This document shows, one piece after another, positions 15,237 through 32,609 of a stretch of DNA of 64,000 bases. Below the pieces are notes generated by a model that was not told where the DNA came from, did no database searches, and was given only the letters and a program-made list of their open reading frames with translations. Numbering within the stretch: the stretch's first letter is position 1; every line of letters begins with the position of its first letter. Origin of the DNA: Candidatus Adlerbacteria bacterium (GTDB lineage: Bacteria > Patescibacteriota > Minisyncoccia > Phycocordibacterales > SBAW01); contig CAINNF010000015.1 of the NCBI GenBank assembly GCA_903851045.1, positions 32,644 to 96,643 on the forward strand. Reading direction: 5' to 3'. The position numbers and the translations under genes are program-made.

Positions 15237-15288
15237 ACCCGCACAACAGACATACTGTAAATATTTTTAAGTTATCTGTCAAACTTTG

Positions 15289-15360: not shown

Positions 15361-15513
15361 ATGTTCTTTTGTGCACCCGAAAATCGGGCACTTCCATACT
15401 ATATCGAGTTTTAGAAAAAACTCCAGCAACCAGTACCCCACCACACGCTTGCTCGCCTTGCTTATACCCTACCCCAGCTGCACACACATCCGTTTACTTG
15501 TTATACTGGTGGC

Positions 15514-16008: not shown

Positions 16009-16042
16009 TAGTACACTCCCTTTCTACATACATACAAAGAGA

Positions 16043-16069
16043 AAGCCACCTGGTTAGGTGGCTTTTTTG
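16043..16069. terminator. Bidirectional rho-independent terminator
   Basis: AAAGCCACC-tggtta-GGTGGCTTTTTTG. Confidence 0.7.
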
Positions 16070-17319
16070 TCGAGATGATCGATCCCCGGTAGAAAGTATG
16101 AGGCGACCCCCACGACGACGAGCACGCAGCCGCATATCGCGAGTTCGGCGGGACACCCGAGTCGGTTCGCGACGATACCCGCTCCCCATGAGCCGAGCAC
16201 CATCCCGCCACAGGAGAACGTGTAGCTGTAGCCAGTGACGATACCAACCAGGTCGTATCTCACCAGATGTGTGATGGACGACCGGATCGTGATAAGACTC
16301 ACCGTGAAGCCGTACCCCGCGAAGAACAGCAGTATCGCAGCCGAAGTAACATCCTTGGTGAGCGAGAGTAGCACGGACGCGATGCCCAAGGTCACCACAC
16401 CGCTCACGAACAGCACCTTGTGAGACAGGAACTTGTGGCAACAGGTGACCATGACCAGGGTAAGGATCGCTCCCGCACCCGACGACAGGGCCAAGTGACT
16501 GAACACCACCGGGTTGCCTCCGAGCATGTCGCGTACGATGACCGAAAGGAGCGACGTGTACGAGAATCCGAACGTACTCACGACGCCCGTGAGCACGATA
16601 CACGTCGCTATCTCTCGATGACGCAAGATGTAGACCGCCCCACGTACGAGACTCTCGCGTACTCCCGGTTGTGGCGCAGTGCGAGCCGGCAGGCTCCGGT
16701 GCGGAGCCAGACGTATCATCACGAGCGCCGACAGGAATACGACGAACGAGACACTGTTCACCATGAAGGTGATCGGATACCCGCAGTACCAGACGAGAAA
16801 CCCCGCGGCGCCTGGCCCGACCATCTGCGCGATGTTGCCGAGCGAGAGAAACACCATGGAGGCGTATCGCACCTGGTGCCTCCCGACGAGCTCTTTGACG
16901 AACACATTACGTCCCGGCGCGTCGATCACCGTGATGAGTCCGGTGCAAAGTACCAGGATGTTTATCGCGAAGATGCTTGCAAGATGTGCATACGTGAGGT
17001 ACGCGAGCGCCACCGCTTGTATAAACCCGAGCACGGTGGTCACGAACAGTATCCGTTTCGTGTCACATCGGTCCAAGAAGAGTCCTGCGAGCGGCGCGAG
17101 CAGTGTCGCGGGCCCGAGCATCAAACCCCCGATCACACCGACCCAATAGGCGGCGTCCACGGTGCCTGCCAAGTCGATGATCAACAGCGAGAGTACCGCC
17201 GATTGTAGGAGCGAACCGATCACAGACACGAACTGACCGGTAAAATACCAACGAAGATTCGTATCCGCGAACACACCCACGGTCGTCGTGCGTGATAGTG
17301 CCGATGTCTCGGCGTTCAT
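16054..17319 (-). CDS. MFS transporter (12-TM, EntS/macrolide-efflux-like)
   Basis: 421 aa, 12 predicted TM helices, MFS-like loop motifs. Confidence 0.8.
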   Translation of the reverse strand: MNAETSALSRTTTVGVFADTNLRWYFTGQFVSVIGSLLQSAVLSLLIIDLAGTVDAAYWVGVIGGLMLGPATLLAPLAGLFLDRCDTKRILFVTTVLGFIQAVALAYLTYAHLASIFAINILVLCTGLITVIDAPGRNVFVKELVGRHQVRYASMVFLSLGNIAQMVGPGAAGFLVWYCGYPITFMVNSVSFVVFLSALVMIRLAPHRSLPARTAPQPGVRESLVRGAVYILRHREIATCIVLTGVVSTFGFSYTSLLSVIVRDMLGGNPVVFSHLALSSGAGAILTLVMVTCCHKFLSHKVLFVSGVVTLGIASVLLSLTKDVTSAAILLFFAGYGFTVSLITIRSSITHLVRYDLVGIVTGYSYTFSCGGMVLGSWGAGIVANRLGCPAELAICGCVLVVVGVASYFLPGIDHLDKKAT

Positions 17320-17412
17320 GCAGTGTCCCCTTTCAGAGGCAAGATATGATGGAGAGCTTCTATACTAAGTAGTACAATACCGGCGAAAGCAGGTCAACCC
17401 GCCCATAACCAC

Positions 17413-17441
17413 TTGACCCGTCACATTGTGTGATCTATGGT
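17413..17441 (+). promoter_or_regulatory. Candidate sigma70-type promoter (TTGACC-N17-TATGGT)
   Basis: Spacing and hexamers fit the consensus, 35 nt upstream of the SD/ATG of gene 17477. Confidence 0.35.
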
Positions 17442-17476
17442 GTATGCGGTACGTATAGAAGAAAAGGAGACCAGCT

Positions 17477-17902
17477 ATGTCGTTTGACCCGTCTGCGACT
17501 CGCTATCGCCTGGGTCCATGGATCCTGTTCGGTGTCTGTAGTGTCGTGTTCTTTGTAGCGATCGGACACATGGTACAGACAACACTCGCCGAGACGATCA
17601 CGTGGATCATCGTGTTCCGTGTCGTAGAGATGTACGTCTTTCTCGCGGCCTATGCATGGATATGCGTCATCTTGATCCGTAAGGAGTCGCGCGCCACCGG
17701 ACAGTGGTTGCTCCGAGTCACCCACAGTGGCGGCGTCATGTCCGAACCCATGACCCACGAGTATCAGTTCGACTCGCTGGAACTTCTGGAGCGAGCATGG
17801 CGCACGTTGTATCTCCGATTTCGCAGTACCCGTACCGTGACTGGCACCGCCACAGCACCTGACGGCACGGTCAGGACACTGCAACTCGACCCGTTACAGT
17901 AG
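17477..17902 (+). CDS. Hypothetical 2-TM membrane protein (141 aa)
   Basis: GAAAAGGAG SD upstream of the ATG. Confidence 0.5.
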   Translation: MSFDPSATRYRLGPWILFGVCSVVFFVAIGHMVQTTLAETITWIIVFRVVEMYVFLAAYAWICVILIRKESRATGQWLLRVTHSGGVMSEPMTHEYQFDSLELLERAWRTLYLRFRSTRTVTGTATAPDGTVRTLQLDPLQ

Positions 17903-17974
17903 CACGCATGTTGCTATTAGGGAAAACGTGCGGTATGGTACGTTTCGGTACACAACACAAGAGGAGTGCTTGCC

Positions 17975-18310
17975 GTGTCGGACAAAGCGGCTGCTATCGT
18001 TCGTAACCTCACGACGTTCGTCGCCTGGGCACACAAACGGTTTCACCAAACTTGGGTGTTAACCGTTACCTACAGCGGGGGTAGCCTGCGCAAGCCGATA
18101 CCTGACGTCTCATACCCGTCAAGGTCACGCCGAAAGGCTCTGCGCCAATGGCGCGACCTGTGCCGCCAGTTCAGTGGCGGCGTCAACAAGATGCACATGG
18201 TCGGCACACTCACGTCTCCCGACGGTGTGGTGGAGCCGCTCGGCACTGTGGAGTCGGGGGTGATCACCCATCCCGACGGGACCACGCAACCCGTCACCTC
18301 GATGAAATAA
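17975..18310 (+). CDS. Hypothetical protein (111 aa)
   Basis: GAGGAG SD 8 nt before the second GTG. Its C-terminal PDG-T motif resembles the C-terminus of the preceding gene. Confidence 0.45.
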   Translation: MSDKAAAIVRNLTTFVAWAHKRFHQTWVLTVTYSGGSLRKPIPDVSYPSRSRRKALRQWRDLCRQFSGGVNKMHMVGTLTSPDGVVEPLGTVESGVITHPDGTTQPVTSMK

Positions 18311-18324
18311 CGCCACACCTCCCG

Positions 18325-18357
18325 GTCCTGTCGCACTTGTGCGACAGGACTTTTTTG
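18325..18357 (+). terminator. Rho-independent terminator
   Basis: GTCCTGTCGCAC-tt-GTGCGACAGGAC-TTTTTT. Confidence 0.65.
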
Positions 18358-18511
18358 TTACAGCATGAAAAAAGGGTGGTCGCGCATCACCTGCCAGCTA
18401 TACATAAAAACCGCCCCTCGTCGAAATGAGCGGACAGTAAAAATTGACACGTGTAGCACAAAGTCGTAATCTGCAATTTAGAAGACCTTCTTCCAGAAAA
18501 GGAGTCGGGAG

Positions 18512-18712
18512 ATGTTATGCTTCGAAGACGTACCGATCAATGAGACCTGCTTTGTCGCAGGACTGGGGATTCATCTGCGACGTATCCCCGACCGTATCGT
18601 CCCCGGGGTGACCACGGACGACGACCGGCCCGTCAACGCAGAGGTCGTCTCGAGCATGAGCGCTCGGGCCGTGTGTCTGGTCGACCCAGACACCTTCGTC
18701 GCTCGTTGCTGA
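18512..18712 (+). CDS. Hypothetical small protein (66 aa)
   Basis: AAAAGGAG SD upstream of the ATG. Confidence 0.4.
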   Translation: MLCFEDVPINETCFVAGLGIHLRRIPDRIVPGVTTDDDRPVNAEVVSSMSARAVCLVDPDTFVARC

Positions 18713-18733
18713 ACAGCGAGGACGGAGGCTCGT

Positions 18734-18907
18734 ATGACACACAACGGCGAAGGTCCCAAAGAACCACGGGTTGCGGAAACGTGCATGGTCACCGAAGAGG
18801 TCGAACTCGGACCGGACGGGAAGCTCGTGCGCGTGCTATACAAGTTCGGATTCCCCTACCACGAGATCCGATCGGATGACGCCCCACCCGCCGAGGTCGA
18901 AGCGTAA
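18734..18907 (+). CDS. Hypothetical small protein (57 aa; below the ORF-track cutoff)
   Basis: Manual translation (MTHNGEGPKEPRVAETCMVTEEVELGPDGKLVRVLYKFGFPYHEIRSDDAPPAEVEA). GGAGG SD 7 nt upstream. A terminator follows. Confidence 0.4.
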   Translation: MTHNGEGPKEPRVAETCMVTEEVELGPDGKLVRVLYKFGFPYHEIRSDDAPPAEVEA

Positions 18908-18919
18908 TCCGTCGACATA

Positions 18920-18954
18920 AGTCGCAGTACACCCATACTGCGACTTTTCTTTTG
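18920..18954 (+). terminator. Rho-independent terminator
   Basis: AGTCGCAGTA-caccca-TACTGCGACT-TTTCTTTT. Confidence 0.6.
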
Positions 18955-19006
18955 ATCGTACGAAAAGAAAATCCCACCCGCGGCACGCGAGTGGGTAGGC
19001 GCACAG

Positions 19007-19345
19007 TCAGACAAAGATCCGTTCGAGATACATGGCGGGAGCACATGCCCTCCCGTACTTCTCGCCAAAATCTATAGACGCCCACACCACCGAAATCGGT
19101 TCAAGCTGGTGCTGACGCGTCACAAAACCTCGAACCGGGGCGATCGCTTTCACCTCACCCACCGCTCCCGCTGGCACCAGTTTGCTCTTGTGGAACCGTG
19201 GTATCGGCAACAGCGTTTGCACCTTCTCACCGACCTCGGTCGGTGGATATTGTGCACGCACCACCTCGGGTGCGTGTATATCGAACGGCCCCGTGTCATC
19301 ATCATCGTCACTGTCTTCAGGAGCCAGAGGTTCGGTCGACACCAT
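19007..19345 (-). CDS. Hypothetical protein (112 aa)
   Basis: Internal ATG (MVSTEPLAPEDSDDDDD...) with GAAGGA SD. Confidence 0.45.
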   Translation of the reverse strand: MVSTEPLAPEDSDDDDDTGPFDIHAPEVVRAQYPPTEVGEKVQTLLPIPRFHKSKLVPAGAVGEVKAIAPVRGFVTRQHQLEPISVVWASIDFGEKYGRACAPAMYLERIFV

Positions 19346-19525
19346 GTCTTTTCCTTCTTTCCCGCGCGCTTCTGCAACAAGACTTACACGTAATACAAAC
19401 CATGTCAATCGTATTGCTGCCCGAGGGCTCGGGTGTAGAAAAAAGTCCTTGCAGGAGACAACACCCTTGCCGAACGAAACTCGTCTCGGTAGGATGGCTA
19501 TAGAAGAGCACATGAGGAGGACGTT

Positions 19526-19840
19526 GTGGCAGTACCACGATCGAAATACTCCCTACCCGACATCGAGACCCTCAGGGGGTTGGCGAGGCGAGACCCTCCG
19601 CTGACGGCCGCGCAGATCGGACGCACCCTGGTCGACCACCATGGATGGGGTGTCAAATATAAGTGGAGCGGGCTCGACAACCATGAGTTGCGGGGGCGCG
19701 TCAGAGGTATCTGCACATCGAACGGCATCGTCCTAAAGCATAGCGAGGTCATACAGCAAGAGCGCGGGAAGAAGCGGGACCCGCGATTCATCCGCGCGAA
19801 CACGCTGCCGCCGCTCCCCTCTGAGATCGGCAAGACATAG
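19526..19840 (+). CDS. Hypothetical protein (104 aa)
   Basis: GTG start with GAGGAGG SD 5 nt upstream. Confidence 0.45.
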   Translation: MAVPRSKYSLPDIETLRGLARRDPPLTAAQIGRTLVDHHGWGVKYKWSGLDNHELRGRVRGICTSNGIVLKHSEVIQQERGKKRDPRFIRANTLPPLPSEIGKT

Positions 19841-19855
19841 GCCTCACGAACACCA

Positions 19856-19885
19856 CGCCGCCCCGACGCAGGGCGGCGTTCTTTC
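19856..19885 (+). terminator. Probable terminator
   Basis: CGCCGCCCC-gacgca-GGGCGGCG then TTCTTTCG. Confidence 0.4.
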
Positions 19886-19925
19886 GTCAGATGCACACAC
19901 GACACCCCGTCTTGCATGCACGCAT

Positions 19926-19952
19926 AAAAAAGGTCGCCGAGTGTCGGCGACC
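19926..19952 (-). terminator. Rho-independent terminator for gene 19964-20194
   Basis: GGTCGCCGA-gtg-TCGGCGACC with a T-run on the minus strand. Confidence 0.55.
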
Positions 19953-19963
19953 AGGTAGCAGGC

Positions 19964-20194
19964 CTAGTGATGTAAGACTCGAACGATCAAGTCGGGCGAG
20001 ATGAAGGCTGCGGAGCCGGTCACCCGCACCCTGCCGTCTTTGATCTCCTCCACGTCGACGTGGGCACCATCACCGAGGACGACACGCATACCGACCTGGT
20101 GGAGCCCTAGCGCCTCGAGCTTGAGCCGACGATCCCGTAGCGCCATTCGAGGCAGCGGTGGCGTCTTGATCTTCCTGTCCTGCCAATCGAACAT
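19964..20194 (-). CDS. Hypothetical protein (76 aa)
   Basis: AAGGAGAGG SD upstream of the ATG. Confidence 0.45.
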   Translation of the reverse strand: MFDWQDRKIKTPPLPRMALRDRRLKLEALGLHQVGMRVVLGDGAHVDVEEIKDGRVRVTGSAAFISPDLIVRVLHH

Positions 20195-20253
20195 CGCACC
20201 TCTCCTTTCCTTCCCCGTTATACGCTAAAACGAAGACGAGCGCCACCGTGTAT

Positions 20254-20278
20254 AAAAACCGCCCCTGGGTCGGGGCGG
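20254..20278 (-). terminator. Rho-independent terminator for gene 20288-20863
   Basis: CCGCCCC-tgggtc-GGGGCGG with a T-run on the minus strand. Confidence 0.55.
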
Positions 20279-20287
20279 CGAAGACGA

Positions 20288-20863
20288 TCAAAAGGTCGGA
20301 AGGATGGTGTACGATCGCTCTCGACCCTTTCGCACCTTCACGTGTACGCAGCGCTCACTGGGCCTGATCTGTCGCAAAGATCGACGTAGTCGTGGGTACG
20401 CGAGCTTCTCGAGCGGATCCCCGGCAAGATCCCCCCACTCCGACACAAGCACGTACCCAAGCGTGATGGAGCGACACGACCCGTCCGTGTCCTCGAGGAC
20501 GGCGACGAAGATGAACTTCTCGTGTACCGTCGTGCCGTCAGGATAGTTGCATGCGAGGTCACGCACCCGGTCGAGCGTCGCCTGGCCGAAGGATCTGTTC
20601 ATGTAGCGAAGCGGGAGCACCGTCACGACACTCCCGACCCCACGATCGACGGCCGCGATGAAGTGCGCCTGATCCTGCACGCTGTAGAACAAAAGATAGA
20701 TGATCCTCGTGCCGGGCTTGCGACCGACAAAGACGAACTTATTCTCGTCGATCAACGCCCGCACCCGCTCCAACGGCAGGCGAAGCCGCTTCTGAGCATG
20801 CACTACCGCATGCCCCGTCGACACCGCTCTTTTCAACACGTCCTCCTGTCCCGTTTCGGGCAC
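20288..20863 (-). CDS. Hypothetical protein (191 aa); exact start uncertain (GTG or downstream TTG)
   Basis: ORF with CAGGAGGA near an alternative TTG start. No recognisable domain. Confidence 0.45.
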   Translation of the reverse strand: MPETGQEDVLKRAVSTGHAVVHAQKRLRLPLERVRALIDENKFVFVGRKPGTRIIYLLFYSVQDQAHFIAAVDRGVGSVVTVLPLRYMNRSFGQATLDRVRDLACNYPDGTTVHEKFIFVAVLEDTDGSCRSITLGYVLVSEWGDLAGDPLEKLAYPRLRRSLRQIRPSERCVHVKVRKGRERSYTILPTF

Positions 20864-20876
20864 GTCCCACTTTCAT

Positions 20877-20996
20877 TCAACCAAACAGCATTCTACACAA
20901 CATACCCAACTTGTGCACACGAGAAAGGCCTTCCGCGTTGTCGGATTCGACCAGCATAGGGTCTACATACTCGGCTCGTGTCACTGATTCGTTCAT
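20877..20996 (-). pseudogene. hsdR-derived relic: first 13 codons of hsdR fused to a segment matching hsdR near nt 22615-22642, then decayed
   Basis: Minus strand reads ATGAACGAATCAGTGACACGAGCCGAGTATGTAGACCCT. This is 36/40 nt identical to the hsdR 5' end at 24535-24574. It is followed by GTCGAATCCGACAACGCGGAAGGC, near-identical to hsdR 22615-22642. Its ATG sits 1 nt after the TAA stop of the upstream gene. Confidence 0.6.
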
Positions 20997-20997
20997 A

Positions 20998-22053
20998 TTA
21001 TGTTGCTATAGCCGCTTCGTGTCGTGCGCGCTCGACCATGAACCGCACCCCCTCGGACATGTTCTCTGCCTCGAGCTTGATGTCGGGATGCGCATGATGA
21101 AAGACTCGAAACACTTCGTCAGCGAATGCCTGCCCAACCGTTGGCACCTTGTCGAAGTCGAAGACGACATACTTGAACTTCTCCAGCCCCGTTAGCACAC
21201 GCCGCGCTTGGGAGCGAGAGATATGTACACCACCTATTGTATACAACTTCACGCGCACCTCGGTCTTGTCGAACCCATAGTCACTGGAGTCATCAAGGTT
21301 GGTGTACTTTTTAAATACGTCCTGCAAGTGTCGCTTGGACGTAGCCGAGAGCGTGAACGATACGCGCGTACCCCGCTTCATCTTCGACACCTTTTTCACG
21401 AACACATCTGGTGCTTTGTTGTCGACTATCAGCTGATATCCAAAACTGTCGAGGATGAACATATCAGCCACGCGCGAAGTAAAGAAGATACCTTCGCCCG
21501 AGTGCGACTTCGGCATCGTGGTTGTCTTACCTTTGAGAATATCTTGGATAGCCTCAAGTTCGGAGGCGAGGCCGCGCTGCCGCATCACGTTGCGAAACAC
21601 ACCGATGCCTGAATCTTGAATGACGAACGAGAGCGTCTTGTGGGGCACCGACACCTCGACCCCGATGCGCACTGACTGCGAGTGTTCGATAGCATTGTTG
21701 AACATCTCTGAAAACGCATACGTGAAGATACTCCGCACATTCTCAGGCAAATTCTCAAGCGTCGGGAATGCATGTTCTATCTGGTCGAGAACCTTGTGCT
21801 CTTCGAGCTGCTTGTTCGCAAAAGACTTAGCGTATCGAAGCGGCAAGATCTCTGGGTGCGCCCGAGCGTACTCGGGCAACACATAGAATGCATAGCGCGT
21901 CGCGCCAAACTTCATAAGCTGTCCATTGGCCACAAGCTCCTGGAGCAAAACGTGTATATATTGTCGCGACACGCCAAAGGAGTCTGAGAGTTCAGTCGAG
22001 GTTATCCTCCCCTTCTGCTTTGCCAAAGCAACTATATTTTCGGGTGTAATCAT
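20998..22053 (-). CDS. Winged-HTH - GHKL (histidine-kinase-like) ATPase - STAS-like (DUF4325) domain protein
   Basis: N-terminal wHTH (ITSTELSDSFGVSRQYIHVLLQEL). GHKL N-box EMFNNAIEHS, G1 IQDSGIGV, G2 SHSGEGIFF. C-terminal ...VFDFDKVPTVGQAFADEVF matches the STAS-like DUF4325 pattern. Confidence 0.7.
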   Translation of the reverse strand: MITPENIVALAKQKGRITSTELSDSFGVSRQYIHVLLQELVANGQLMKFGATRYAFYVLPEYARAHPEILPLRYAKSFANKQLEEHKVLDQIEHAFPTLENLPENVRSIFTYAFSEMFNNAIEHSQSVRIGVEVSVPHKTLSFVIQDSGIGVFRNVMRQRGLASELEAIQDILKGKTTTMPKSHSGEGIFFTSRVADMFILDSFGYQLIVDNKAPDVFVKKVSKMKRGTRVSFTLSATSKRHLQDVFKKYTNLDDSSDYGFDKTEVRVKLYTIGGVHISRSQARRVLTGLEKFKYVVFDFDKVPTVGQAFADEVFRVFHHAHPDIKLEAENMSEGVRFMVERARHEAAIAT

Positions 22054-22231
22054 AATGGTATCGACAAGTCATTGTCAACCAAAGTATATTCTATTGTCAA
22101 CCCATTGTCAACCAGCCACATCACACGCACCTGTGAATAAAAAGGGTACTCAGCACACTGCCAGACTCTACCCCTGCTCCGTCTCCCAAATTTTTATTTT
22201 CATAGAGTACTGTATATCCCCAGACTAGTAA

Positions 22232-24574
22232 CTATTTAGAATATAGCCCGATTTGAAAAGCGAAAAACTGCGAACGAATAGCGTCCACGTCCCCGAGTAC
22301 CTGTTCGGCGTCTGAGAGCGCATGATATTTAAGATTAAGAAGCACTGGCAACTTCTCCTCACCAAGTTCCATGTCGCCCCCCTCCTCGTACTTCTTGAGA
22401 ACAAACGACAGAAACTCTTTTTGTGCTCCGCTCACTGAATCAAGGATGGTGCTTTTGTTGCGCTCCACTCTGTCCTTTCGTGTTATTGGTCGTGTTGCGA
22501 ACGAGACATATGACAGCACATCAAACAGGTCGCTGTTTTCGGCATCAATCATTTTCTGCAACGTTTCCAACTCATCACGACCAAAACCAAGCTCGGCGAT
22601 ACGATCGAGAAATGCCTTCCGCGTTGTCGGATTTGACCAGATGTTTCGAAGCTCTTCTTCATTCTTAAAGAACTCGGGCATCGCACCAAACATATTTTGA
22701 ATAAACTCTTCGGCAGAGATTGGCTTACCGTCTGCACCCCAAAACGAAGTCGAGATCATGTACTGGATTTCTCGCTCCTTGCCGTCTCTGAGTTTGATTA
22801 TAATTTTCTTTTTCTGTTCAATAGGCTCTGGAGTTTGTTCAGGCTCTGTGTGCTCCCTGCGCTCTTTTGGCTTCTTGGGAGTACTGGGTTCCACATCCTC
22901 TGCCTCAATCGGCTCGCCATCCCACTCTGGGTCAGCGAAGTGTTTATACGCATCCACGAAATCGTAGATCGTAAAATACTCCTTACCGTCAAACAGTCGG
23001 GTGCCGCGACCGACAATCTGCTTGAACTCAATCATTGAGTTCACAGGACGCATCAAGACAATGTTTCGCACATTGCGAGCATCCACACCAGTCGACAACT
23101 TTTGCGAAGTGGTGAGAATGGTCGGAATACTCCGCTCGTTATCCTGGAATTCGCGCAAAAACTGCTCGCCGCGGGCTCCATCGTTCGCCGTGACACGGAC
23201 GCAGTAGTTCGGGTCGGTGCTGTCTTTCATCTGATTCACCAAATCGCGCACCGCGAGCGCGTGCGTCTGATTGGCACAAAAAATAATAGTCTTCTCGTCT
23301 TGGCGTATTTCATCAAGCACGATACGTACGCGCTTGGCCTCGCGCTCTTTGATCTCAATAATCCTATTAAAATCCGCTTCTTCGTATATCTTACCCTGCT
23401 CTACTTCACCCTCGACTACCTCGTCGTCCGACGTGTACACATAGTCGTCCAAGGTCGTCTGGATGCGCTTCACTTTAAACGGCGTCAGGAAGCCGTCATT
23501 GATACCCTGCTTGAGCGAGTAGGTATAGAGCGGATCACCGAAATACTTGTAGGTGTCTACATTGTCGACGCGCTTCGGGGTCGCCGTGAGACCTAGCTGT
23601 ACCGCTGGAGCAAAATAATCGAGGATGCTGCGCCAGTTGGATTCGTCGTTCGCTCCCCCACGGTGACATTCGTCGATAATAATCAAATCAAAAAAGTCTG
23701 CCGGATAATCGCCAAAATACGGCGTATTGTTTGACCCACCCTGCGGTGAGGTACTCGAACCCGTCATGAACGTCTGAAAAATAGTAAAGAATATGCTCCC
23801 GTTGGTCGGGATTGCGCCTCGCTTGCGGATCTCGAGCGGGTTAATACGTACAAGTGCATCCTCGGGAAAAGCGGCGAAAGCATTGTACGCTTGGTCTGCA
23901 AGAATATTTCGATCGGCCAAAAAGAGCACTCGCGGGCGACGCTTGCCATCGCGCTGAAGTGTCCAACGGGCTTGGAAGATCTTCCATGCGATCTGGAATG
24001 CGATAGTCGTCTTCCCCGTCCCGGTCGCGAGCGTGAGCAGGAGTCGCTTCTTGTTTTCGGCGATAGCATCGAGCGCGCGATTGATAGCAATCTCTTGGTA
24101 GTATCGCTTGCCATACTCACCCTCAAGAGGGATCGAAGCGAATGTCTCCTTCCACTGCGCCGTCTGTGACTCCTCGTGGCCAAACAGCTGCGCCCACAAC
24201 TCCTCAGGTGTTGGGAACTTCTCGACATATTCCTCCTTTCCACTCTTCATCGACACACAATAAATCTCTCGACCGTTGGTCGAATAGGTGTGCTCGATTT
24301 GGAGCTTCTCTGCGTACGCCTTCGCCTGGGCGACACCTTCGGTCGCAGGCAGGTCGAGCGCTTTCGCCTCCACCACAGCGAGCTTCTGGTTCTTGTACAC
24401 CAACACATAGTCCGCGATCTCGGGTTTGGCGCGCACGCCACCCGTCTGGATCTTGCCGTCCGTAATGCGAAACTCGCGCAACACGCGCGACCCTTCCACC
24501 TCACCCCAACCGGCTTCCTTGAGCTTAGGGTCTACGTACTCGGCTCGCGTCTCTGATTCGTTCATTAAAACCAT
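22232..24574 (-). CDS. hsdR: Type I restriction enzyme R subunit (compact, 780 aa)
   Basis: N-terminal PD-(D/E)xK nuclease motif (D...VVEAK), Walker A LATGTGKT, DECH box (IIDECHRG), helicase motif VI (QIVGRGTR). The true start may be the second ATG (MNESE). Confidence 0.9.
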   Translation of the reverse strand: MVLMNESETRAEYVDPKLKEAGWGEVEGSRVLREFRITDGKIQTGGVRAKPEIADYVLVYKNQKLAVVEAKALDLPATEGVAQAKAYAEKLQIEHTYSTNGREIYCVSMKSGKEEYVEKFPTPEELWAQLFGHEESQTAQWKETFASIPLEGEYGKRYYQEIAINRALDAIAENKKRLLLTLATGTGKTTIAFQIAWKIFQARWTLQRDGKRRPRVLFLADRNILADQAYNAFAAFPEDALVRINPLEIRKRGAIPTNGSIFFTIFQTFMTGSSTSPQGGSNNTPYFGDYPADFFDLIIIDECHRGGANDESNWRSILDYFAPAVQLGLTATPKRVDNVDTYKYFGDPLYTYSLKQGINDGFLTPFKVKRIQTTLDDYVYTSDDEVVEGEVEQGKIYEEADFNRIIEIKEREAKRVRIVLDEIRQDEKTIIFCANQTHALAVRDLVNQMKDSTDPNYCVRVTANDGARGEQFLREFQDNERSIPTILTTSQKLSTGVDARNVRNIVLMRPVNSMIEFKQIVGRGTRLFDGKEYFTIYDFVDAYKHFADPEWDGEPIEAEDVEPSTPKKPKERREHTEPEQTPEPIEQKKKIIIKLRDGKEREIQYMISTSFWGADGKPISAEEFIQNMFGAMPEFFKNEEELRNIWSNPTTRKAFLDRIAELGFGRDELETLQKMIDAENSDLFDVLSYVSFATRPITRKDRVERNKSTILDSVSGAQKEFLSFVLKKYEEGGDMELGEEKLPVLLNLKYHALSDAEQVLGDVDAIRSQFFAFQIGLYSK

Positions 24575-24629
24575 TATGCAACGCGGCAGATTTTATGTAA
24601 ATGACCCACAGGCGACACATGAACACCCC

Positions 24630-25022
24630 TTAAAAGAGATGTTTGTAGGCTGGGTAATTATTCTTAATGATCTGCTGCCACTCTGCTGTTTCGTTGTGCC
24701 CGCTGAGATCCGTCTTGGTATACACGAGCAGCACCGACACCGACTGCTGCTGCTTGTGCCACGCGACTATACAGCGATTCCCCGACGTCTTAGCAGACTC
24801 TTGTGTCCCAGCAACACGAAACTTCGTCTTGATGATCAATATATCACCAGCATCACACACCGTCTCAGCCCTGCTCGTTAAGATGAGTGCATCGATGCGC
24901 TCAAGCTCTGCCATAATCGCGAGCAACGTGACGTCCCATTTCGCCTTGTATTTCTTTGAAAAACTTTTGATAAAGTGACGCTCGGCAAACACCTCGATAT
25001 TAACAGCATTATTGCCTGGCAT
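24630..25022 (-). CDS. Putative toxin partner of the adjacent PanA-like antitoxin (130 aa; RelE/ParE-like fold suspected)
   Basis: Small basic protein 7 nt downstream of the HTH-DUF4065 gene. The ...RCIVAW...VSVLLVYTKTD pattern loosely resembles the RelE/HigB C-terminal strands. Confidence 0.4.
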   Translation of the reverse strand: MPGNNAVNIEVFAERHFIKSFSKKYKAKWDVTLLAIMAELERIDALILTSRAETVCDAGDILIIKTKFRVAGTQESAKTSGNRCIVAWHKQQQSVSVLLVYTKTDLSGHNETAEWQQIIKNNYPAYKHLF

Positions 25023-25029
25023 ATATGCG

Positions 25030-25722
25030 CTAGAACACCTCGTCGGGGTCCTCTTGGGTGATCAGTTCGTACGGAATAATTTCGTCCATGCGGCACAGCA
25101 CATAGGGCAGCTGATTGTGCGTAAACGTAACGATCTCCTGCGTCTTTTTATCTTTCCACTTCGCGGCGATCTTCTTGAGTAACGCTTGCTCTTTGGGTGA
25201 CACTGTTTGTATCTTTTCGTTCCTATTACTCTCTGACTCACCGACCAAGAACATCTCCTTTCCGTTCTCATTCTTGTGGTCGATCACGATCTTACCATCC
25301 TGCTCGAGCTCATCAAGCGCGCGAAAGAACGCATCCGGCACGGGGCCGTATGCGATCTTGCGATATGACATACCACTCATGCTCTCCATGTGCTCATAGA
25401 ACCAAGCGAAGTCCGCCAAATAGAGCAGCTTCGCGAGCTTGGTCTTGGGTATCTTACCGTCTTTCGACAGGTTCATGCGTAGATAGAGCAGCAACATCTG
25501 CTTGTACTTGGCGATGTTCGGAATATTCCCTGACAATAACTCGTCGACAGTGATACCAAACAAACTCGCCAGCTTCTGAGCTTCGTCAGTATCGAGCTTC
25601 TGCTTACCCACCTCGATGGCCGTATACGTGGGACGAGACACCCCAATAGCCTTCGCCACCTGCTCTTGGGAAAGCTTGTGGGCGACGCGAAGCTCCTTGA
25701 GCTTTCGCATATACGTATTCAT
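25030..25722 (-). CDS. HTH_XRE + DUF4065 (Panacea domain) protein; PanA/SocA/GepA-like antitoxin
   Basis: N-terminal Cro/C1 HTH (LRVAHKLSQEQVAKAIGVSRPTYTAIEVGKQ). C-terminal KTKLAKLLYLADF...AYGPVPD matches the DUF4065 signature (KLxKLLY...GPV). Start set at the internal ATG after a TM-less, low-complexity over-extension. Confidence 0.7.
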   Translation of the reverse strand: MNTYMRKLKELRVAHKLSQEQVAKAIGVSRPTYTAIEVGKQKLDTDEAQKLASLFGITVDELLSGNIPNIAKYKQMLLLYLRMNLSKDGKIPKTKLAKLLYLADFAWFYEHMESMSGMSYRKIAYGPVPDAFFRALDELEQDGKIVIDHKNENGKEMFLVGESESNRNEKIQTVSPKEQALLKKIAAKWKDKKTQEIVTFTHNQLPYVLCRMDEIIPYELITQEDPDEVF

Positions 25723-26053
25723 ACCCAAAAGTGTATACGAACCATGTAAAGAAGTCAAGCGATTTTGGTCGAAATATTGACGTACAGATTCTGAAGCGTA
25801 AAATATGTCTACTGGCATGGTCGAGCCAGGTAAGAACAAGTGATCAAATCGTAATAACATGAGTAAGACAAACGGAATCAGAAGCAGTAAGAATCTCGCT
25901 AGTAAAGCGGCGAAAGCTCTTAGTAGTGGTAGCACCAGCAAGAACACAAAGTCCCTTGCTGCAAACACCCTCGGCAACAGAGCAAAAAAGAGTCACTAGA
26001 CGGAATGAAACTATGCAAAAATCCACACTATGCCAAGTAGGGTGGATTTTACT

Positions 26054-27244
26054 TTACAACTCCCCTGCGAATGCCTGCTGCAAAATCGACTTCTTGAGCT
26101 CATCCAAACAAGCCAACTTCTTGGCATAGATCTCCTCCAGCTTTTTGGTCTCCCCCGCCAAAGCATCCAACTTTTTAACTATCGCTTTTTGTTCTGGAAA
26201 AGGCGGCAACAGAAACTCAAAGGCAAATAGATGCTCTCGATTTACCTTTGGCATACCGGCTCTATCCGAACCCAAAATTGCATACTTAGTGAAACCAGAT
26301 GTTAATAGTAGATAATACAAAAAATCTCTATTCAATGTTTTTTCGTCGGGCAATAGAGGATATATGTCCGCACTGCACAGTCCGTCAAAATCTGGCCTAA
26401 CTACTTTCATTAAGTATGGTCGTATTTTGCTGTATAACACCATATTCTTATCAAAAATAAACTTTCCAGAAATAAGTTTTTCTTCTTTTGCTGTCTTAAC
26501 ATCAATAAGCTCTCCTGTCTTTGCTTGAATATTTCCAGCTCCAACGTGCCGCATATTTAGAAACCGCTTCTCCCTCGGGTCGACCAGTTTTGAAGCAATC
26601 GCGCACACAGTATCTAGTCGAATTAATTTCCATCCCTCCCCCGGATTAGCAAAAACACCTTGTAAATAAGACTCAAAAAGCTCGCGGGAATTCTGCAAAT
26701 TCTTTTCTGTGTTCGCTTTCGCCTTTTCAATTTTCTCAAAAACTTCATCCAGAATTTTCACAATCCTCTTTTGCTCGGTTAGGGGTGGGAGTGGAATTTC
26801 TATTTCGCCCAAATTTTTACGACTAATTCTTGTTCTTGTCGTCCCACTAGTTTTTCCTGCAACTGCATCTAAGTAGAGATTTGATTGAGAATAGTAATTA
26901 AAATATCGGGGAATAATTTTTAGTGGATCAAAACGAGCAATACTACAATCAACCGCAGTTATCATTCTTTCCCCGGTATTTGGCAAAATACATGCACGAC
27001 CTACAGGGTCGGGCAGACGAGAGATCAGGCAGTCGCCTTTAAAAATTTCGGTGCACCTCAATCTGTTAAATGTCTTTTCCGAAATATAACGCGCCTTCTC
27101 TCCCCTGTCTTTGAAAACACCGACACCTACGTTGCCGGTCTGGATAAGACGAATTCCATCTCTCGATTGATCCTTACTCTCTATCCAATTACCATCCGTA
27201 AAGACCTTACAGACTTCACCTAGTTTCTTTGTTTGTAACATCAT
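26054..27244 (-). CDS. hsdS: Type I restriction-modification specificity subunit (two TRDs)
   Basis: Conserved central and C-terminal repeats (LPPLTEQKRIVKILDEVFEKIEKAK... / LPPFPEQKAIVKKLDALAGE...). The start overlaps the upstream gene's stop as ATGA. Confidence 0.9.
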   Translation of the reverse strand: MMLQTKKLGEVCKVFTDGNWIESKDQSRDGIRLIQTGNVGVGVFKDRGEKARYISEKTFNRLRCTEIFKGDCLISRLPDPVGRACILPNTGERMITAVDCSIARFDPLKIIPRYFNYYSQSNLYLDAVAGKTSGTTRTRISRKNLGEIEIPLPPLTEQKRIVKILDEVFEKIEKAKANTEKNLQNSRELFESYLQGVFANPGEGWKLIRLDTVCAIASKLVDPREKRFLNMRHVGAGNIQAKTGELIDVKTAKEEKLISGKFIFDKNMVLYSKIRPYLMKVVRPDFDGLCSADIYPLLPDEKTLNRDFLYYLLLTSGFTKYAILGSDRAGMPKVNREHLFAFEFLLPPFPEQKAIVKKLDALAGETKKLEEIYAKKLACLDELKKSILQQAFAGEL

Positions 27245-28218
27245 ACGTATTGAGCCTTGTTTTCTTCGCAATGTTTTTTTACAAAATTAAACCAGTTTTC
27301 GTACCAATACCATGTCTTTTCAATTTCTACCCCAAACCCTTTAGACAGATCTTTTGCATTTTCGCTTTTCCAAAGCTGTGTATGTTTATGTAATCCAAAC
27401 CGGGTATACCCAATCTTGTTCATTTCGCTAACTATTTTTTTGGGCAAATATTTTGGCTTTTCTTTATCTCTAAAAGCCCAATACTCTTTATTTAGGCCTT
27501 TTGCTATTTCAGAATTTGGATCCACAAACTCTATCACCTTATCAGCTTGACCTTTTCTATTTGCAGTCTTTGGGACAAACAAGACTCTATAAGAAAATCT
27601 ACTATTATTGAACTCATCCTCAGGCAGTCCTTCATCAAACGCCTCAATATATGTGGCAATATTACTAGGAAGATCTTTATAATCTGAGAGCTGATTAATT
27701 TGTTTCTCACTTAGTGAGGAGAATTGTAAACTGAATGAAAGGTGCTTTTCGATACTTTTTTCGTTCGGAAATAATTTTTTTAGATACTCATTATAATTCA
27801 AGCAGCAAGCCTGAAATCTTGCACTTAAAAGATCGTCTATTCTTGTAGTCATCTGATGTTCGATTTCGTGCCTAAGACCTATCAGAAAAAGCAGGTTGGA
27901 CACAGCAACCCTGTCGATTGGTGATTTTTTATCATTCAAGCACCGTTCAAGTTCCCAATATTTATAAGCACCATTCTTTGTAAAATCAAACTTCCTGTTT
28001 TTGCCTTTTTGCTCAAAATACCTATATTCAATTTTCTTGCTACGATAGTACGCATGCAACAGATATGTCCACGCAATAATTGCTAGCACTATAAAAGATT
28101 CGGATTTAAACTGAATATTTGGATTATTAAAAACTTGAACAGCTGTCAATATAGACTCTTTCGATTTTAAGATTAGTTCGTCTTTGACTGAGTGAAGCTT
28201 TCTCTTTCTCTTTGCCAT
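27241..28218 (-). CDS. AT-rich hypothetical protein embedded between hsdM and hsdS; candidate HEPN-motif (Rx4H) Abi-like protein
   Basis: 325 aa at about 33% GC, 6 nt downstream of hsdM, with ATGA coupling to hsdS. Contains LIGLRHEIEHQ (R-x4-H). The HEPN assignment rests on this one motif. Confidence 0.5.
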   Translation of the reverse strand: MAKRKRKLHSVKDELILKSKESILTAVQVFNNPNIQFKSESFIVLAIIAWTYLLHAYYRSKKIEYRYFEQKGKNRKFDFTKNGAYKYWELERCLNDKKSPIDRVAVSNLLFLIGLRHEIEHQMTTRIDDLLSARFQACCLNYNEYLKKLFPNEKSIEKHLSFSLQFSSLSEKQINQLSDYKDLPSNIATYIEAFDEGLPEDEFNNSRFSYRVLFVPKTANRKGQADKVIEFVDPNSEIAKGLNKEYWAFRDKEKPKYLPKKIVSEMNKIGYTRFGLHKHTQLWKSENAKDLSKGFGVEIEKTWYWYENWFNFVKKHCEENKAQYV

Positions 28219-28224
28219 ACGGTC

Positions 28225-29688
28225 TTATATTTTTCCTCCAAGCTTACCCGTGATTACGGAAATTTCTTTATCAAGCGCTTTCATTGCTTTTAAAATCTCC
28301 TTAGGGCTGCGCAGCGTCACTTCCCCGCCTTTGTTGGGGTTCTTGACTGAGAGGTCAAAGGTTTTTGGGTCTATGTCTTTAGCGTCCACGCTCCAGGAAT
28401 TTTCGGAGTCGGCTTTGGTTTTTTGGAGCTTCACGAAGTCGGCGAGGTCGGCTTCGCTCAGTGGATTTGTTTTACCGAGGTTGCGTGGGAGGTTGAGTTG
28501 GTAGAACCACACCTTGCGGGTTGGTTTGCCTTTTTCGAAAAAGAGGACGACTGTTTTGACTCCGGCACCTTGGAAGGTCCCGCTCGGGAGGTCGAGGATG
28601 GTGTGGAGGTTGCAGTTCTCCAGCAAAAGCTTGCGCAGGCTCACCGAGGCGTTGTCGGTGTTAGAGAGGAAGGTGTTTTTGATGACGATGCCAGCGCGGC
28701 CGCCAGCGCGGAGAATTTTGATGAAGTGTTGGAGAAAGAGGAAGGCCGTCTCGCCTGTTTTGATAGGGAAGTTTTGTTGGATCTCGCTGCGGATACCCGC
28801 GCCAAACGGCGGGTTGGCGAGGACGATGTCATAGCGGTCTTTCTCTTGGATGTCGGCGATATTTTGTGCGAGGGTGTTGCCGTGCACGATGTTGGGCGCT
28901 TCGACGCCGTGGAGGATCATGTTCATCGTGCCGATGATGTAGGCGAGCGATTTTATCTCTTTGCCATAAAAAGTCTTCTTTTGGAGCGTCACCCAGTCTT
29001 TTGGTTGCAGCTTCTCGGTGTCCCCTTTCATGTAGACGAACCCTTCGGCCAAGAAGCCCGCCGAGCCGACTGCCCCGTCGTAGACGGTCTCGCCAATTTT
29101 TGGATCAACGACTTTGATGATTGTGCGGATGAGCGAGCGCGGCGTATAAAACTCGCCACCGTTGCGTCCCGCGTTGCCCATGTTCTTTATCTTGTCTTCG
29201 TAGAGGTGCGAGAGCTCATGCTTTTCGGAGTCGGTGCGGAAATGCATCGTATCGACTATGTCGAGGATGTTGCGCAGCGTATAGCCGCTCTGGATCTTAT
29301 TCTTCAACTCGCTAAATATCTCCCCTATTTTATATTCGATAGTGTCAGGACTCTCGGCACTCGCTTTAAATTTCTTGAGGTATGGGAATAGGTCACGATC
29401 GACGAACGTGTTGAGGTCGTCGCCCGAGAGTGCTTTATTGTGGTCGAGTTTGCCCTGTGGCGTCTTGGGTGCTGCCCAGACCTCCCAGCGGTACTGTGGC
29501 GCGATGATTGGTTTGTAGGCTCGGCCGGAGAGCTTCGCCGCTTTCTTCTTTTCTTCCTCCAAGTCGTCGAGGTACTTGAGGAAGAGGATCCACGACGTCT
29601 GCTCGATATAGTCGAGCTCCGTCCCCACCCCCGCGTCGCGGTGGAGTATGTCGTCTATGTTCTTAAACGCCTGCTCAAACATGTTCAA
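28225..29688 (-). CDS. hsdM: Type I R-M N6-adenine DNA methyltransferase subunit
   Basis: NPPFG catalytic motif (VLANPPFGAG), an AdoMet-binding region, and the N-terminal HsdM helical domain. Confidence 0.9.
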   Translation of the reverse strand: MNMFEQAFKNIDDILHRDAGVGTELDYIEQTSWILFLKYLDDLEEEKKKAAKLSGRAYKPIIAPQYRWEVWAAPKTPQGKLDHNKALSGDDLNTFVDRDLFPYLKKFKASAESPDTIEYKIGEIFSELKNKIQSGYTLRNILDIVDTMHFRTDSEKHELSHLYEDKIKNMGNAGRNGGEFYTPRSLIRTIIKVVDPKIGETVYDGAVGSAGFLAEGFVYMKGDTEKLQPKDWVTLQKKTFYGKEIKSLAYIIGTMNMILHGVEAPNIVHGNTLAQNIADIQEKDRYDIVLANPPFGAGIRSEIQQNFPIKTGETAFLFLQHFIKILRAGGRAGIVIKNTFLSNTDNASVSLRKLLLENCNLHTILDLPSGTFQGAGVKTVVLFFEKGKPTRKVWFYQLNLPRNLGKTNPLSEADLADFVKLQKTKADSENSWSVDAKDIDPKTFDLSVKNPNKGGEVTLRSPKEILKAMKALDKEISVITGKLGGKI

Positions 29689-29713
29689 AGAGTACCACCC
29701 CTACCAATTTTCG

Positions 29714-30088
29714 CTATTCCCCCGCCAGTTCGGTGTACTTTTTGTGGTTGCCTTTGGATTTTTCTACCGGGTATTTTGCTTCGTTCTTTTGGAGTTTGTC
29801 GAGGAAGGCTTGGGAGACGTCGATGTGGAGGTCGTTGGCCATCAGGAGCACCCAGTAGAGGACGTCCGCTAACTCTTCGGCGATGTCTTTGGAGTTGGAG
29901 ATGACGTACTGCTCGATCTCCTGTGGGCTCTTCCACTGGAAGTGTTCGAGCACTTCGGCGGCCTCCAGCGTCAGCGAGATGGCGAGGTCTTTGGGGTTGT
30001 GAAACTGCTTCCAGTCTCGCGCGTCGCGAAACTCACGCACCTTCTTCGTAAGGTCTTTGATGTTCGACATATGCACATACTCTACCAA
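29714..30088 (-). CDS. MazG-like nucleotide pyrophosphohydrolase
   Basis: EAAEVLE...ELADVLYWVLLMA EExxE/D helices typical of the MazG/NTP-PPase all-alpha fold. 25 nt upstream of hsdM. Confidence 0.65.
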   Translation of the reverse strand: MVEYVHMSNIKDLTKKVREFRDARDWKQFHNPKDLAISLTLEAAEVLEHFQWKSPQEIEQYVISNSKDIAEELADVLYWVLLMANDLHIDVSQAFLDKLQKNEAKYPVEKSKGNHKKYTELAGE

Positions 30089-30191
30089 ATGTACCGACTT
30101 TGACTATGACGGCGTGCGTTGACACGATTCCATCATTTCTTGTATGAATAGTGCAGTGTTCTTTACGCAAACATCCGACAGGAGAGACCGC

Positions 30192-30542
30192 ATGGTCAAG
30201 GAAAGAGACGAACGGAGGATCATCCCGTTCCCCACTAGGCCGCCCGGCCCAAGCGAGCCCGTGCACTACGTGGGTATAGCAGTGATCGACTTCGCACAGC
30301 GAAAGGCTGGCGACGAGTTCTACCTATCGACCGCGCGCGGGTTTGGGTACCGGCTCACCATCACAAACACGCGAGCATACACCGCCACGCTCGTCGCCTG
30401 TACGCACAAAGGTCCGTTCGTCGAACGTGAGATCACCGTGAGGGACGGCAAGATCCACACTGGCCGCAAACTCGCATACGTGTTCGGCGGCGCGCTCGAG
30501 CACACGGCGGACGACATTACATTCATCTATCTTCTGCTGTGA
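30192..30542 (+). CDS. Hypothetical protein (116 aa)
   Basis: Internal ATG with ACAGGAGAG SD. A terminator follows. Confidence 0.45.
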   Translation: MVKERDERRIIPFPTRPPGPSEPVHYVGIAVIDFAQRKAGDEFYLSTARGFGYRLTITNTRAYTATLVACTHKGPFVEREITVRDGKIHTGRKLAYVFGGALEHTADDITFIYLLL

Positions 30543-30552
30543 CGCAGCACAA

Positions 30553-30586
30553 TAAAGACCCGGTCCAACGTCGGACCGGGTCTTAT
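30553..30586. terminator. Bidirectional rho-independent terminator
   Basis: GACCCGGTCC-aacgt-CGGACCGGGTC flanked by A/T runs. Confidence 0.65.
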
Positions 30587-30596
30587 GCAATGTGGT

Positions 30597-30812
30597 CTAT
30601 GGCAAACGTTGCGGCCGCACGGACGATGGTTCTCCGCGATCAGCCGGGTGTTGCAGGGCCGACTCGATCGACACGTACACATGATGCACGTAGTTCTGGA
30701 GCGCGTACCCCCAGACACCGCACACCGTAAGCGCAATGACCACGAACAGGCCGATGCCGAGCGGCCACGAGTCTTCAGGCACCGGTCTGAACTGGAACTT
30801 ATCTTCTGTCAT
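30597..30812 (-). CDS. Hypothetical small membrane protein (71 aa)
   Basis: Internal ATG with AAGGGG SD. One TM helix. Confidence 0.35.
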   Translation of the reverse strand: MTEDKFQFRPVPEDSWPLGIGLFVVIALTVCGVWGYALQNYVHHVYVSIESALQHPADRGEPSSVRPQRLP

Positions 30813-30950
30813 CACAGACCCCTTTTGTGAACATGTAGCCTTGTGCATTAAACACGAAATTGTACAAAACGCAACACTCCCGATCACGCACAAAAACACC
30901 CCAAATCGGGGTGTTTTTGTAAACATACAAGATGGCCTGTATATTTTTGC

Positions 30951-32609
<1,659 letters not shown>

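Follow-up and report, generated by a model that had tools for sequence, protein, structure and literature searches.

Our analysis of a window of 64,000 nucleotides (nt) from a Candidatus Adlerbacteria bacterium, a member of the Candidate Phyla Radiation (CPR, or Patescibacteria), implies that the segment immediately downstream of groEL, on the minus strand at 20.9-30.1 kb, is probably a defence island built on an intact EcoAI-family Type I restriction-modification (R-M) system, with independently mobile accessory modules nested inside it. These modules would be co-located layers and not one co-evolved machine. The original prediction had described a single multi-layer unit that was new to the literature. 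Our results agree with a Type I R-M locus that has further conflict-type genes inside and beside it, but the single unit could not be upheld: in an orthologous Type I system one of the slots is taken by a different gene, and the PanA-type antitoxin gene with its presumed toxin partner, the MazG-like gene and the gene for a winged helix-turn-helix (wHTH)-GHKL-STAS protein are each found elsewhere without Type I R-M. Nor is such a layout undescribed, as defence and toxin-antitoxin (TA) genes embedded in Type I R-M have already been published (PMC3710099; bioRxiv 10.1101/2024.01.29.577857; PMC12255303). Domains were searched for with the Pfam, NCBIfam, PADLOC and PHROGs libraries; L-numbers (L005, L091 and so on) are the labels of the comparison loci used in this analysis.

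The Type I backbone and the modules nested in it

Domains and motifs assign the backbone to the EcoAI family of Type I R-M systems, and all three of its subunits are apparently intact. The gene hsdM (28225-29688, minus strand, as are all genes of the island) encodes the N6-adenine DNA methyltransferase subunit (N6_Mtase 2.5e-61, HsdM_N 5.3e-10, PADLOC MTase_I 2.7e-156, NPPF motif at residue 292), and hsdS (26054-27244) the specificity subunit, which has two target-recognition domains (two Methylase_S stretches, 7.9e-29; PADLOC Specificity_I 1.1e-91). The restriction subunit gene hsdR (22232-24574) belongs to the EcoAI (type IB) family: its product reaches 812.6 bits against the NCBIfam EcoAI/FtnUII equivalog NF046051, whose cutoff is 550, carries ResIII (6.3e-37) and EcoEI_R_C (5e-24) domains and has the motifs D55..E69-x-K71, GTGKT, DECH, TATP and VGRGTR. 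The annotated hsdR ATG at 24574 gives a protein that reads MVLMNES..., and both an hsdR relic further downstream and the orthologue in L111 begin with MNES...; translation therefore probably starts from the ATG at 24565. Complete catalytic or binding motifs were found in HsdR and HsdM as well as in the HEPN, GHKL (N, G1 and G2 boxes) and MazG-like proteins of the island.

The modular nature of the island is illustrated by the metagenomic loci L091/92, in which the order of an orthologous Type I system is hsdM, an AAA_15/AAA_21 ATPase gene, hsdS, panA, a gene for a 130-amino-acid (aa) protein and hsdR, with no MazG-like gene upstream. The identities between the window and L091/92 are 76% for HsdM, 83% for PanA, 82% for the 130-aa protein and 75% for HsdR, and HsdS resembles that of L091 only in its C-terminal half (43%). 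Because L091 has the ATPase gene where the window has a DUF3644-type HEPN gene, the slot between hsdM and hsdS is, on this comparison, exchangeable, which fits the low guanine-plus-cytosine (GC) content of the window's DUF3644 gene and hsdS. The MazG-like and wHTH-GHKL-STAS genes, judging by their occurrence in other loci, are separately mobile neighbours of the system.

The base composition is mixed. The DUF3644 gene has a GC content of 0.344 (0.33 at third codon positions, GC3) and hsdS of 0.407 (GC3 0.39), and the gap between hsdS and panA has 0.42. The genes mazG, hsdM, panA, toxin, hsdR and GHKL lie at 0.48-0.54 (GC3 0.60-0.78), groEL at 0.60 (GC3 0.81), the region 20877-30088 as a whole at 0.478 and the remaining window at 0.557. 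The compositionally foreign piece is the DUF3644-hsdS cassette of about 2.5 kb in the hsdM|hsdS slot, and it is confined to this cassette because only these genes and the gap that follows them are strongly low in GC. The notion of a low-GC island thus holds for the cassette alone and fails for the other genes, with their GC of 0.48-0.54.

All nine features of the original prediction were recovered on the minus strand at the positions that it gave, by hidden Markov model (HMM) searches and by reading the sequence, and none of the extra open reading frames (ORFs) outside the R-M genes matched a housekeeping family in the HMM searches. Its junctions were re-read directly from the sequence as described: a 6-nt gap between hsdM and the DUF3644 gene (TAA-gaccgt-ATG), an ATGA overlap of the latter with hsdS, a 7-nt gap after panA and TAA-T-ATG after the GHKL gene; the gap given as 330 nt measures 331 nt from the hsdS stop to the panA ATG at 25722. 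The operon-tight packing is therefore real at individual junctions, but the whole locus is not one operon, as a hairpin follows hsdS and promoter-like sites are found ahead of panA, of hsdR and of the GHKL gene, the last two of which lie 178 nt apart. The hairpin with its U-run (26017-26049, minus strand, just after the hsdS stop; -11.9 kcal/mol, z score -2.19, with 3 of 200 shuffled sequences folding as well) is probably the terminator of the mazG-hsdM-HEPN-hsdS unit. A hairpin after hsdR (22118-22180) is not claimed as a terminator because it folds no better than shuffled sequence (z 0.22).

The gene that occupies the hsdM|hsdS slot (27241-28218) encodes a DUF3644-type HEPN protein of 325 aa, which matches PF12358 (4.8e-56; 189.7 bits against a cutoff of 27.6) and, over residues 1-323, the PADLOC model PDC-S19 (PDLC04948; 2.8e-162), and which conserves the HEPN Rx4-6H motif as R116-HEIE-H121. 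HEPN/DUF3644 genes are known from R-M operons (PMC3710099). The window shares with PrrC-EcoprrI and with the HEPN genes of R-M operons (Anantharaman et al. 2013, PMC3710099; EC042_2821/DUF3644 family) a HEPN gene with intact Rx4-6H inside a Type I operon, but in contrast to PrrC its HEPN protein has no ABC-ATPase fusion. HEC-08, a DUF3644 protein that needs its HEPN histidine for defence, likewise has an N-terminal DUF3644 HEPN domain, whereas it was found embedded in Hma systems (bioRxiv 10.1101/2024.01.29.577857); the window protein is a full-length match to PDC-S19, and its C-terminal region (residues ~198-325) has one cysteine and no CxxC pairs that would mark it as HEC-08.

Between hsdS and hsdR lies a second module. 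The gene panA (25030-25722) encodes a PanA-type antitoxin of 230 aa with an N-terminal Xre-type helix-turn-helix (HTH; HTH_3 1.5e-16) and a C-terminal Panacea domain (DUF4065; SocA_Panacea, PF13274, 1.8e-13, 51.8 bits against a cutoff of 25.7), and faint matches to DarG were seen in PADLOC (0.0039) and NCBIfam (0.0029). Gene callers place its start at 25722, the mechanical ORF of 315 aa being too long, and a promoter-like site precedes it at 25758-25730. Its presumed toxin partner, the 130-aa protein (24630-25022, starting 7 nt after the panA stop), has a predicted RelE/ParE fold. It has no match in Pfam, NCBIfam, PADLOC or PHROGs, nor did a 27-sequence profile of it find one among the PDB sequences, and only the predicted fold was informative for its identification. 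Its homologues, 495 in number and all unnamed, come nearly all from CPR sources.

The two genes stand 7-9 nt apart in all four of the independent contexts that were read (L091/92, L093/94, L095/96 and the window), a fifth pair with 56% and 48% identity was found in L115, and in L091-L096 and L115 the HTH-Panacea gene always precedes the 130-aa gene. The pair occurs without R-M in L093/94, where it follows genes for RhuM, a MazG-like protein and an SLFN-g3 helicase/Peptidase_S24 protein, and in L095/96, where it stands alone. On the predicted RelE/ParE fold and the invariant pairing with an HTH-Panacea protein, panA and the 130-aa gene appear to be a fixed two-gene TA module of the PanAT type, the putative toxin of which belongs to a family without a model in the four libraries searched. 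Panacea antitoxins, among which HTH-PanA is common, are known to have highly varied partner toxins, RNase-type folds included (PMC8832971). The window agrees with the PanAT systems (Kurata et al. 2022, PMC8832971) in its antitoxin with N-terminal HTH and Panacea domain, bicistronic with a small toxin-like gene, and it differs from them in that the family of its presumed toxin has no Pfam or NCBIfam model.

At the upstream end, a gene at 29714-30070/30088 encodes a MazG-like all-alpha NTP pyrophosphohydrolase (PF12643 1.1e-19, PF03819 2.8e-07, phrog_3301 pyrophosphatase 1.2e-16) with the motifs ExxE (36-39) and ExxD (66-69). The protein has 118 aa from the ATG at 30070, or 124 aa if the TTG at 30088 is used, and the gene ends 25-31 nt upstream of hsdM. 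The family counts at least 8,000 homologues. Those with 65-76% identity adjoin SLFN-g3 helicase/Peptidase_S24 genes in L093/94 and L178/179, and in another locus a MazG-like gene lies near Fic and DUF2726 genes. The idea of MazG as a Type I-specific partner was given up, as L091 has no such gene and the other contexts show a different neighbour. The window enzyme is like that of mazEFG, in which mazG was noted as a third gene with mazEF (PMC8832971), and like phage MazG, in being a small all-alpha NTP pyrophosphohydrolase beside conflict genes; in contrast to mazEFG, it falls in the MazG-like PF12643 clade (dCTP diphosphatase in some sources) and precedes hsdM, and elsewhere it precedes an SLFN-type helicase/S24 gene. 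The spacing between the MazG-like gene and the gene for the SLFN-g3 helicase with Peptidase_S24, which has about 670 aa, is 4-5 nt (L093:3815-6187, L094, L178:5001-7365, L179), with a DUF2779 gene near these pairs, and the two may form a recurring two-gene module in CPR genomes.

The wHTH-GHKL-STAS gene and the hsdR relic

Downstream of hsdR, in its own transcription unit, a gene (20998-22053) encodes a protein of 351 aa composed of a wHTH, an RsbW/SpoIIAB-like GHKL ATPase/kinase domain (HATPase_c) and a STAS-like domain (DUF4325, 7.3e-13). The GHKL fold with its N, G1 and G2 boxes is closest to the anti-sigma kinases RsbW and SpoIIAB, and no MutL/MORC-type GHKL domain with an S5-fold transducer, as in the MORC/paraMORC proteins of R-M systems, was found in it. 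The STAS-type domain sits in the same protein, as in the fused Rv1364c, and the whole recalls the RsbW-RsbV and SpoIIAB-SpoIIAA pairs. It differs from these partner-switching modules in its fused N-terminal wHTH, in its mobility across CPR phyla and phages and in its partners: neither a sigma factor nor a PP2C phosphatase was found at the window locus or among the recurrent neighbours of its homologues. An invariant VxxxGQAFADE stretch, presumed to correspond to the phospho-acceptor loop of SpoIIAA/RsbV, has no conserved Ser/Thr (T305 varies). The family has more than 6,478 matches, with 65-87% identity across many CPR phyla, and further members are named from Deltaproteobacteria and Margulisiibacteriota metagenome-assembled genomes (MAGs). 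The literature yielded only incidental mentions of DUF4325, one of which reports a PIN subfamily transcriptionally coupled to DUF4325 genes.

The promoter region of the gene (22059-22114, minus strand) holds a putative operator of GTTGACAAT direct repeats, three exact and one degenerate, about 11 nt apart within each pair. The motif includes the -35 consensus TTGACA, and the repeats overlap two near-consensus sigma-70-like promoters (22111-22083 and 22078-22049, 11/12 each). No other exact copies exist in the window. The array was examined in the window, L026, L085-L087 and L097-L176: it is kept at the DNA level in L085, L086, L087, L111 and L026, and of 79 homologous loci, 72 have at least three copies within 120 nt upstream of the gene, compared with a background frequency of 0.016 per 120 nt. 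This family-wide array overlapping the gene's own promoter strongly suggests that the GHKL-STAS gene is autoregulated through its wHTH. Regulation of the island by this protein was considered and rejected, the operator being absent upstream of mazG/hsdM, panA and hsdR.

The homologues of this gene have no fixed neighbour, their 68 downstream genes falling into 83 Pfam families. A fixed partner, or a conserved sensor with a variable effector, was sought by clustering 84 loci (with Pfam assignments for the 68 downstream and 10 tightly coupled neighbours) and was not found. Restriction genes nevertheless recur there: hsdR directly follows the homologue in L111, L149/151 and L154, an hsdR fragment with hsdM and hsdS does so in L142, MmeI-type enzymes follow it in L117 and L119, and DNA methylases lie nearby in about six loci (assigned by eye, one cluster representative having a DPPY motif). 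ResIII and EcoEI_R_C were each counted three times and N6_Mtase and MmeI each twice among the 68 neighbours, whereas in 136 ORFs taken at random from CPR groEL loci none of the four had as many as two members; this control, in which only families with at least two members are fully listed, is crude and gives no P value. In another CPR cluster, L087:1703-10672 (GCA_027425175.1), a GHKL-STAS homologue (77%) lies with a RadC-methyltransferase fusion, a second methyltransferase, RE_AlwI, Mrr_cat, DUF3644 and PDDEXK_1 genes, and the window's accessory families recur there around a Type II system. Distant homologues (31-47% identity) are present on 39 IMG/VR contigs (L183-L221, e.g. L208:7911-8960), and on at least 13 of these viral contigs the gene has a typical moron position, with a late transcriptional regulator (phrog_36) on one side and terS-terL-portal on the other.

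The window itself holds a trace of an hsdR downstream of the gene. The relic of a second hsdR (20920-20996, minus strand, ORF stop at 20877), which begins 1 nt after the GHKL stop and whose remnant ORF reads MNESVTRAEYVDP..., joins hsdR codons 4-17 (20996-20957, 92.5% over 40 nt) to codons 645-657 (20954-20920, 94.3% over 35 nt), with a blastn E value of about 1e-11 for each. The relic is genuine but smaller than originally predicted, being two hsdR fragments joined head to tail, and it reads as an internally deleted, truncated second hsdR. In L111 the junction is TAA-cgacct-ATGAACGAATCC, that is 6 nt, after which an intact hsdR follows, 71% identical to that of the window; by comparison of the two sequences, L111 shows the arrangement that the relic implies. 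The hsdR that comes after the GHKL-STAS homologue in L149:3077-4785 and in L151, 76% identical to that of the window, is likewise in fragments; hsdR has thus decayed directly behind this gene in a second, independent case. It could be that the GHKL-STAS gene is a self-contained, autoregulated and horizontally mobile single-gene module, with an intramolecular partner switch and a GTTGACAAT array of 3-6 repeats, which acts as an anti-phage or superinfection-exclusion sensor or, in view of the relic and of the intact GHKL-hsdR pair in L111, as a controller of adjacent restriction; we offer this tentatively and regard it as an unlikely, if attractive, possibility.

Alternative explanations, proposed working and precedents

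Several observations weigh against our reading of independently mobile modules on a Type I backbone. In both orthologous Type I systems the PanA-toxin pair is found between hsdS and hsdR, and this shared slot could mean that it is functionally linked to this R-M family and not simply co-located with it. No PADLOC model matches the MazG-like, 130-aa or GHKL-STAS proteins, and a defence role of GHKL-STAS is doubtful because several of its neighbours are housekeeping genes (RF-1, SDR, S49 peptidase). An empty site was not found among 80 groEL loci, and none is definable, since synteny ends at the groEL stop; integrase, transposase and flanking repeats were not found around the island (20.2-31 kb). 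One could go further and take the whole locus for one integrated, co-evolved multi-layer system, the accessory proteins of which depend physically or regulatorily on the Type I enzyme. The tight or overlapping junctions of hsdM-HEPN-hsdS and panA-toxin and the shared slot in L091/92 would agree with this, as would the PanA-toxin pair lying 3.3 kb from a GHKL homologue in L115 and DUF3644 lying near a GHKL homologue and R-M genes in L087. However, L091 lacks MazG and has another gene in the slot, the PanA-toxin pair, MazG and the GHKL gene are found in other loci that lack Type I R-M, the locus has separate promoters and a terminator-like hairpin, its composition is mixed, and the GTTGACAAT operator lies upstream of no other island gene. 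We consider such an integrated system highly improbable.

The accessory genes might also be no immunity layers at all: the TA pair would be an addiction module stabilising the island, MazG a sanitiser of the nucleotide pool and GHKL-STAS a general autoregulated transcription factor that lands in variable regions. Tight junctions are common in CPR because the genomes are compact, and GHKL homologues tightly precede genes for RF-1, SDR, S49 peptidase or YgjP; a different all-alpha pyrophosphatase lies in an ordinary context downstream of groEL in L005, PADLOC matches are missing for the three proteins named above, and the GHKL operator is found only at its own promoter. Against this, conflict genes (RhuM, SLFN-like helicase/S24, reverse transcriptase, Fic, DUF2726) recur near MazG-like genes, R-M families are present among the 68 GHKL neighbours and reach two members nowhere in the crude 136-ORF control, the GHKL-STAS family takes a phage moron position, and a relative of the DUF3644 protein acts in defence (bioRxiv 10.1101/2024.01.29.577857); we judge this explanation unlikely, although it deserves to be kept in mind. 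That the wHTH-GHKL-STAS protein is a restriction controller like the C proteins of Type II systems or RptR, gating a downstream hsdR, and that its original target has decayed to the relic, seems improbable to us. The relic does begin 1 nt after the GHKL stop, hsdR is intact after the gene in L111, present in L154, accompanied as a fragment by hsdM and hsdS in L142 and fragmented in L149/151, and the direct-repeat operator resembles the RptR case (PMC12255303), but hsdR lies downstream in only about 5 of 84 loci, most neighbours are unrelated, phage copies adjoin terminase genes, and in the window the intact hsdR, which lacks a GTTGACAAT site, precedes the GHKL gene.

If the proteins of this modular island act as their families suggest, HsdM2S would methylate the host DNA and R2M2S would cut unmodified invading DNA as a first line of defence. 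The second line would consist of the HEPN RNase and the RelE-like toxin, effectors of growth arrest that are released when infection disables restriction, or when host expression stops and PanA is not resupplied. PanA would repress its own promoter through its HTH, and the MazG-like enzyme would hydrolyse (deoxy)nucleoside triphosphates. GHKL-STAS would repress its own promoter via the wHTH, its RsbW-like and STAS domains forming an intramolecular partner switch. By analogy, such second-line arrest would resemble that of PrrC with EcoprrI, of DarTG2 in an E. coli Type I system and of HEC-08.

In the work on the 'guilt by embedding' approach, Type I R-M is named among the systems that often house embedded defence genes (bioRxiv 10.1101/2024.01.29.577857), and DarTG2 has been described embedded in Type I R-M together with a repressor that binds direct repeats (PMC12255303). 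The window is similar to this RptR/Type I R-M island of enteropathogenic E. coli (EPEC) with DarTG2 in having a TA pair inside the Type I cluster and a DNA-binding regulator on promoter direct repeats, the latter only a candidate in the window. In contrast to DarTG2, the window toxin has a predicted RelE/ParE fold and not the DarT ADP-ribosyltransferase, and the antitoxin is HTH-Panacea without a macrodomain; in place of a small repressor acting on the R-M promoter, as RptR is, the window has a candidate regulator of 351 aa, the wHTH-GHKL-STAS protein, encoded in a unit of its own. A further difference is the host, a CPR bacterium.

Every architectural principle of the locus has therefore been published before (PMC3710099; bioRxiv 10.1101/2024.01.29.577857; PMC12255303; PMC8832971). 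The new details are the exact combination, the CPR host, the unmodelled partner of predicted RelE fold and the GHKL-STAS family. Genomes of CPR bacteria are very small and carry few CRISPR systems, and a 9-kb island of restriction and back-up toxins shows what share of such a genome is spent on conflict. The layout of the embedded defence gene, described in Proteobacteria, would operate in CPR bacteria too, and the comparison with L091 provides a clean example of slot-wise module exchange within a Type I operon. A further lead is the Panacea-associated toxin family of predicted RelE fold, still without a model in Pfam, NCBIfam, PADLOC or PHROGs. The best lead in our opinion is the very large uncharacterised wHTH-GHKL-STAS family with its conserved putative operator, also present in prophages, which deserves follow-up.

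Host and surroundings of the island

The host is, judged by its GroEL, Candidatus Adlerbacteria, because this protein (30951-32597) shares 91% identity with the GroEL of a Candidatus Adlerbacteria MAG; its next best matches all come from Patescibacteria/CPR. Relatives for the synteny comparison were 80 genome loci with 10-kb flanks, retrieved by GroEL. Gene order in the window agrees with theirs (L005, L007 and others) upstream of groEL, between 32.6 and about 41 kb, and the synteny breaks exactly at the groEL stop, where the relatives have LemA-DUF2207-...-Peptidase_M48 instead. The original prediction had proposed a look in relatives for the same flanks without the insert. None of the related CPR genomes that we compared has the locus, or any other window content below 30951, within 10 kb downstream of groEL. 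Logan, ENA and NCBI contigs from the same population contain the island in identical copies. The only long direct repeats at the island are the hsdR relic fragments, and the only tRNA gene of the window, tRNA-Asn (15288-15360), lies 5.5 kb from it.

The segments flanking the island (15500-20870 and 30089-30950) contain mostly small ORFs without a Pfam family, apart from two genes at 15.5-17.3 kb, one for an MFS transporter and one of the CTP_transf_like family. Four ORFs (19007-20863) and two adjoining groEL were tested and had no counterpart downstream of groEL in the related CPR genomes; therefore the variable region may extend beyond 20877-30088. A strong intrinsic terminator (20250-20290, -18.5 kcal/mol, z -3.6) follows an ORF of 191 aa (20288-20863), and because of its position the GHKL gene, the relic and this ORF may share one transcript. 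A second low-GC patch (0.36-0.42) lies at 13000-15500, beside the tRNA-Asn gene; its main ORF (14271-15236, 321 aa) has no Pfam match, and the patch may be another acquired segment.

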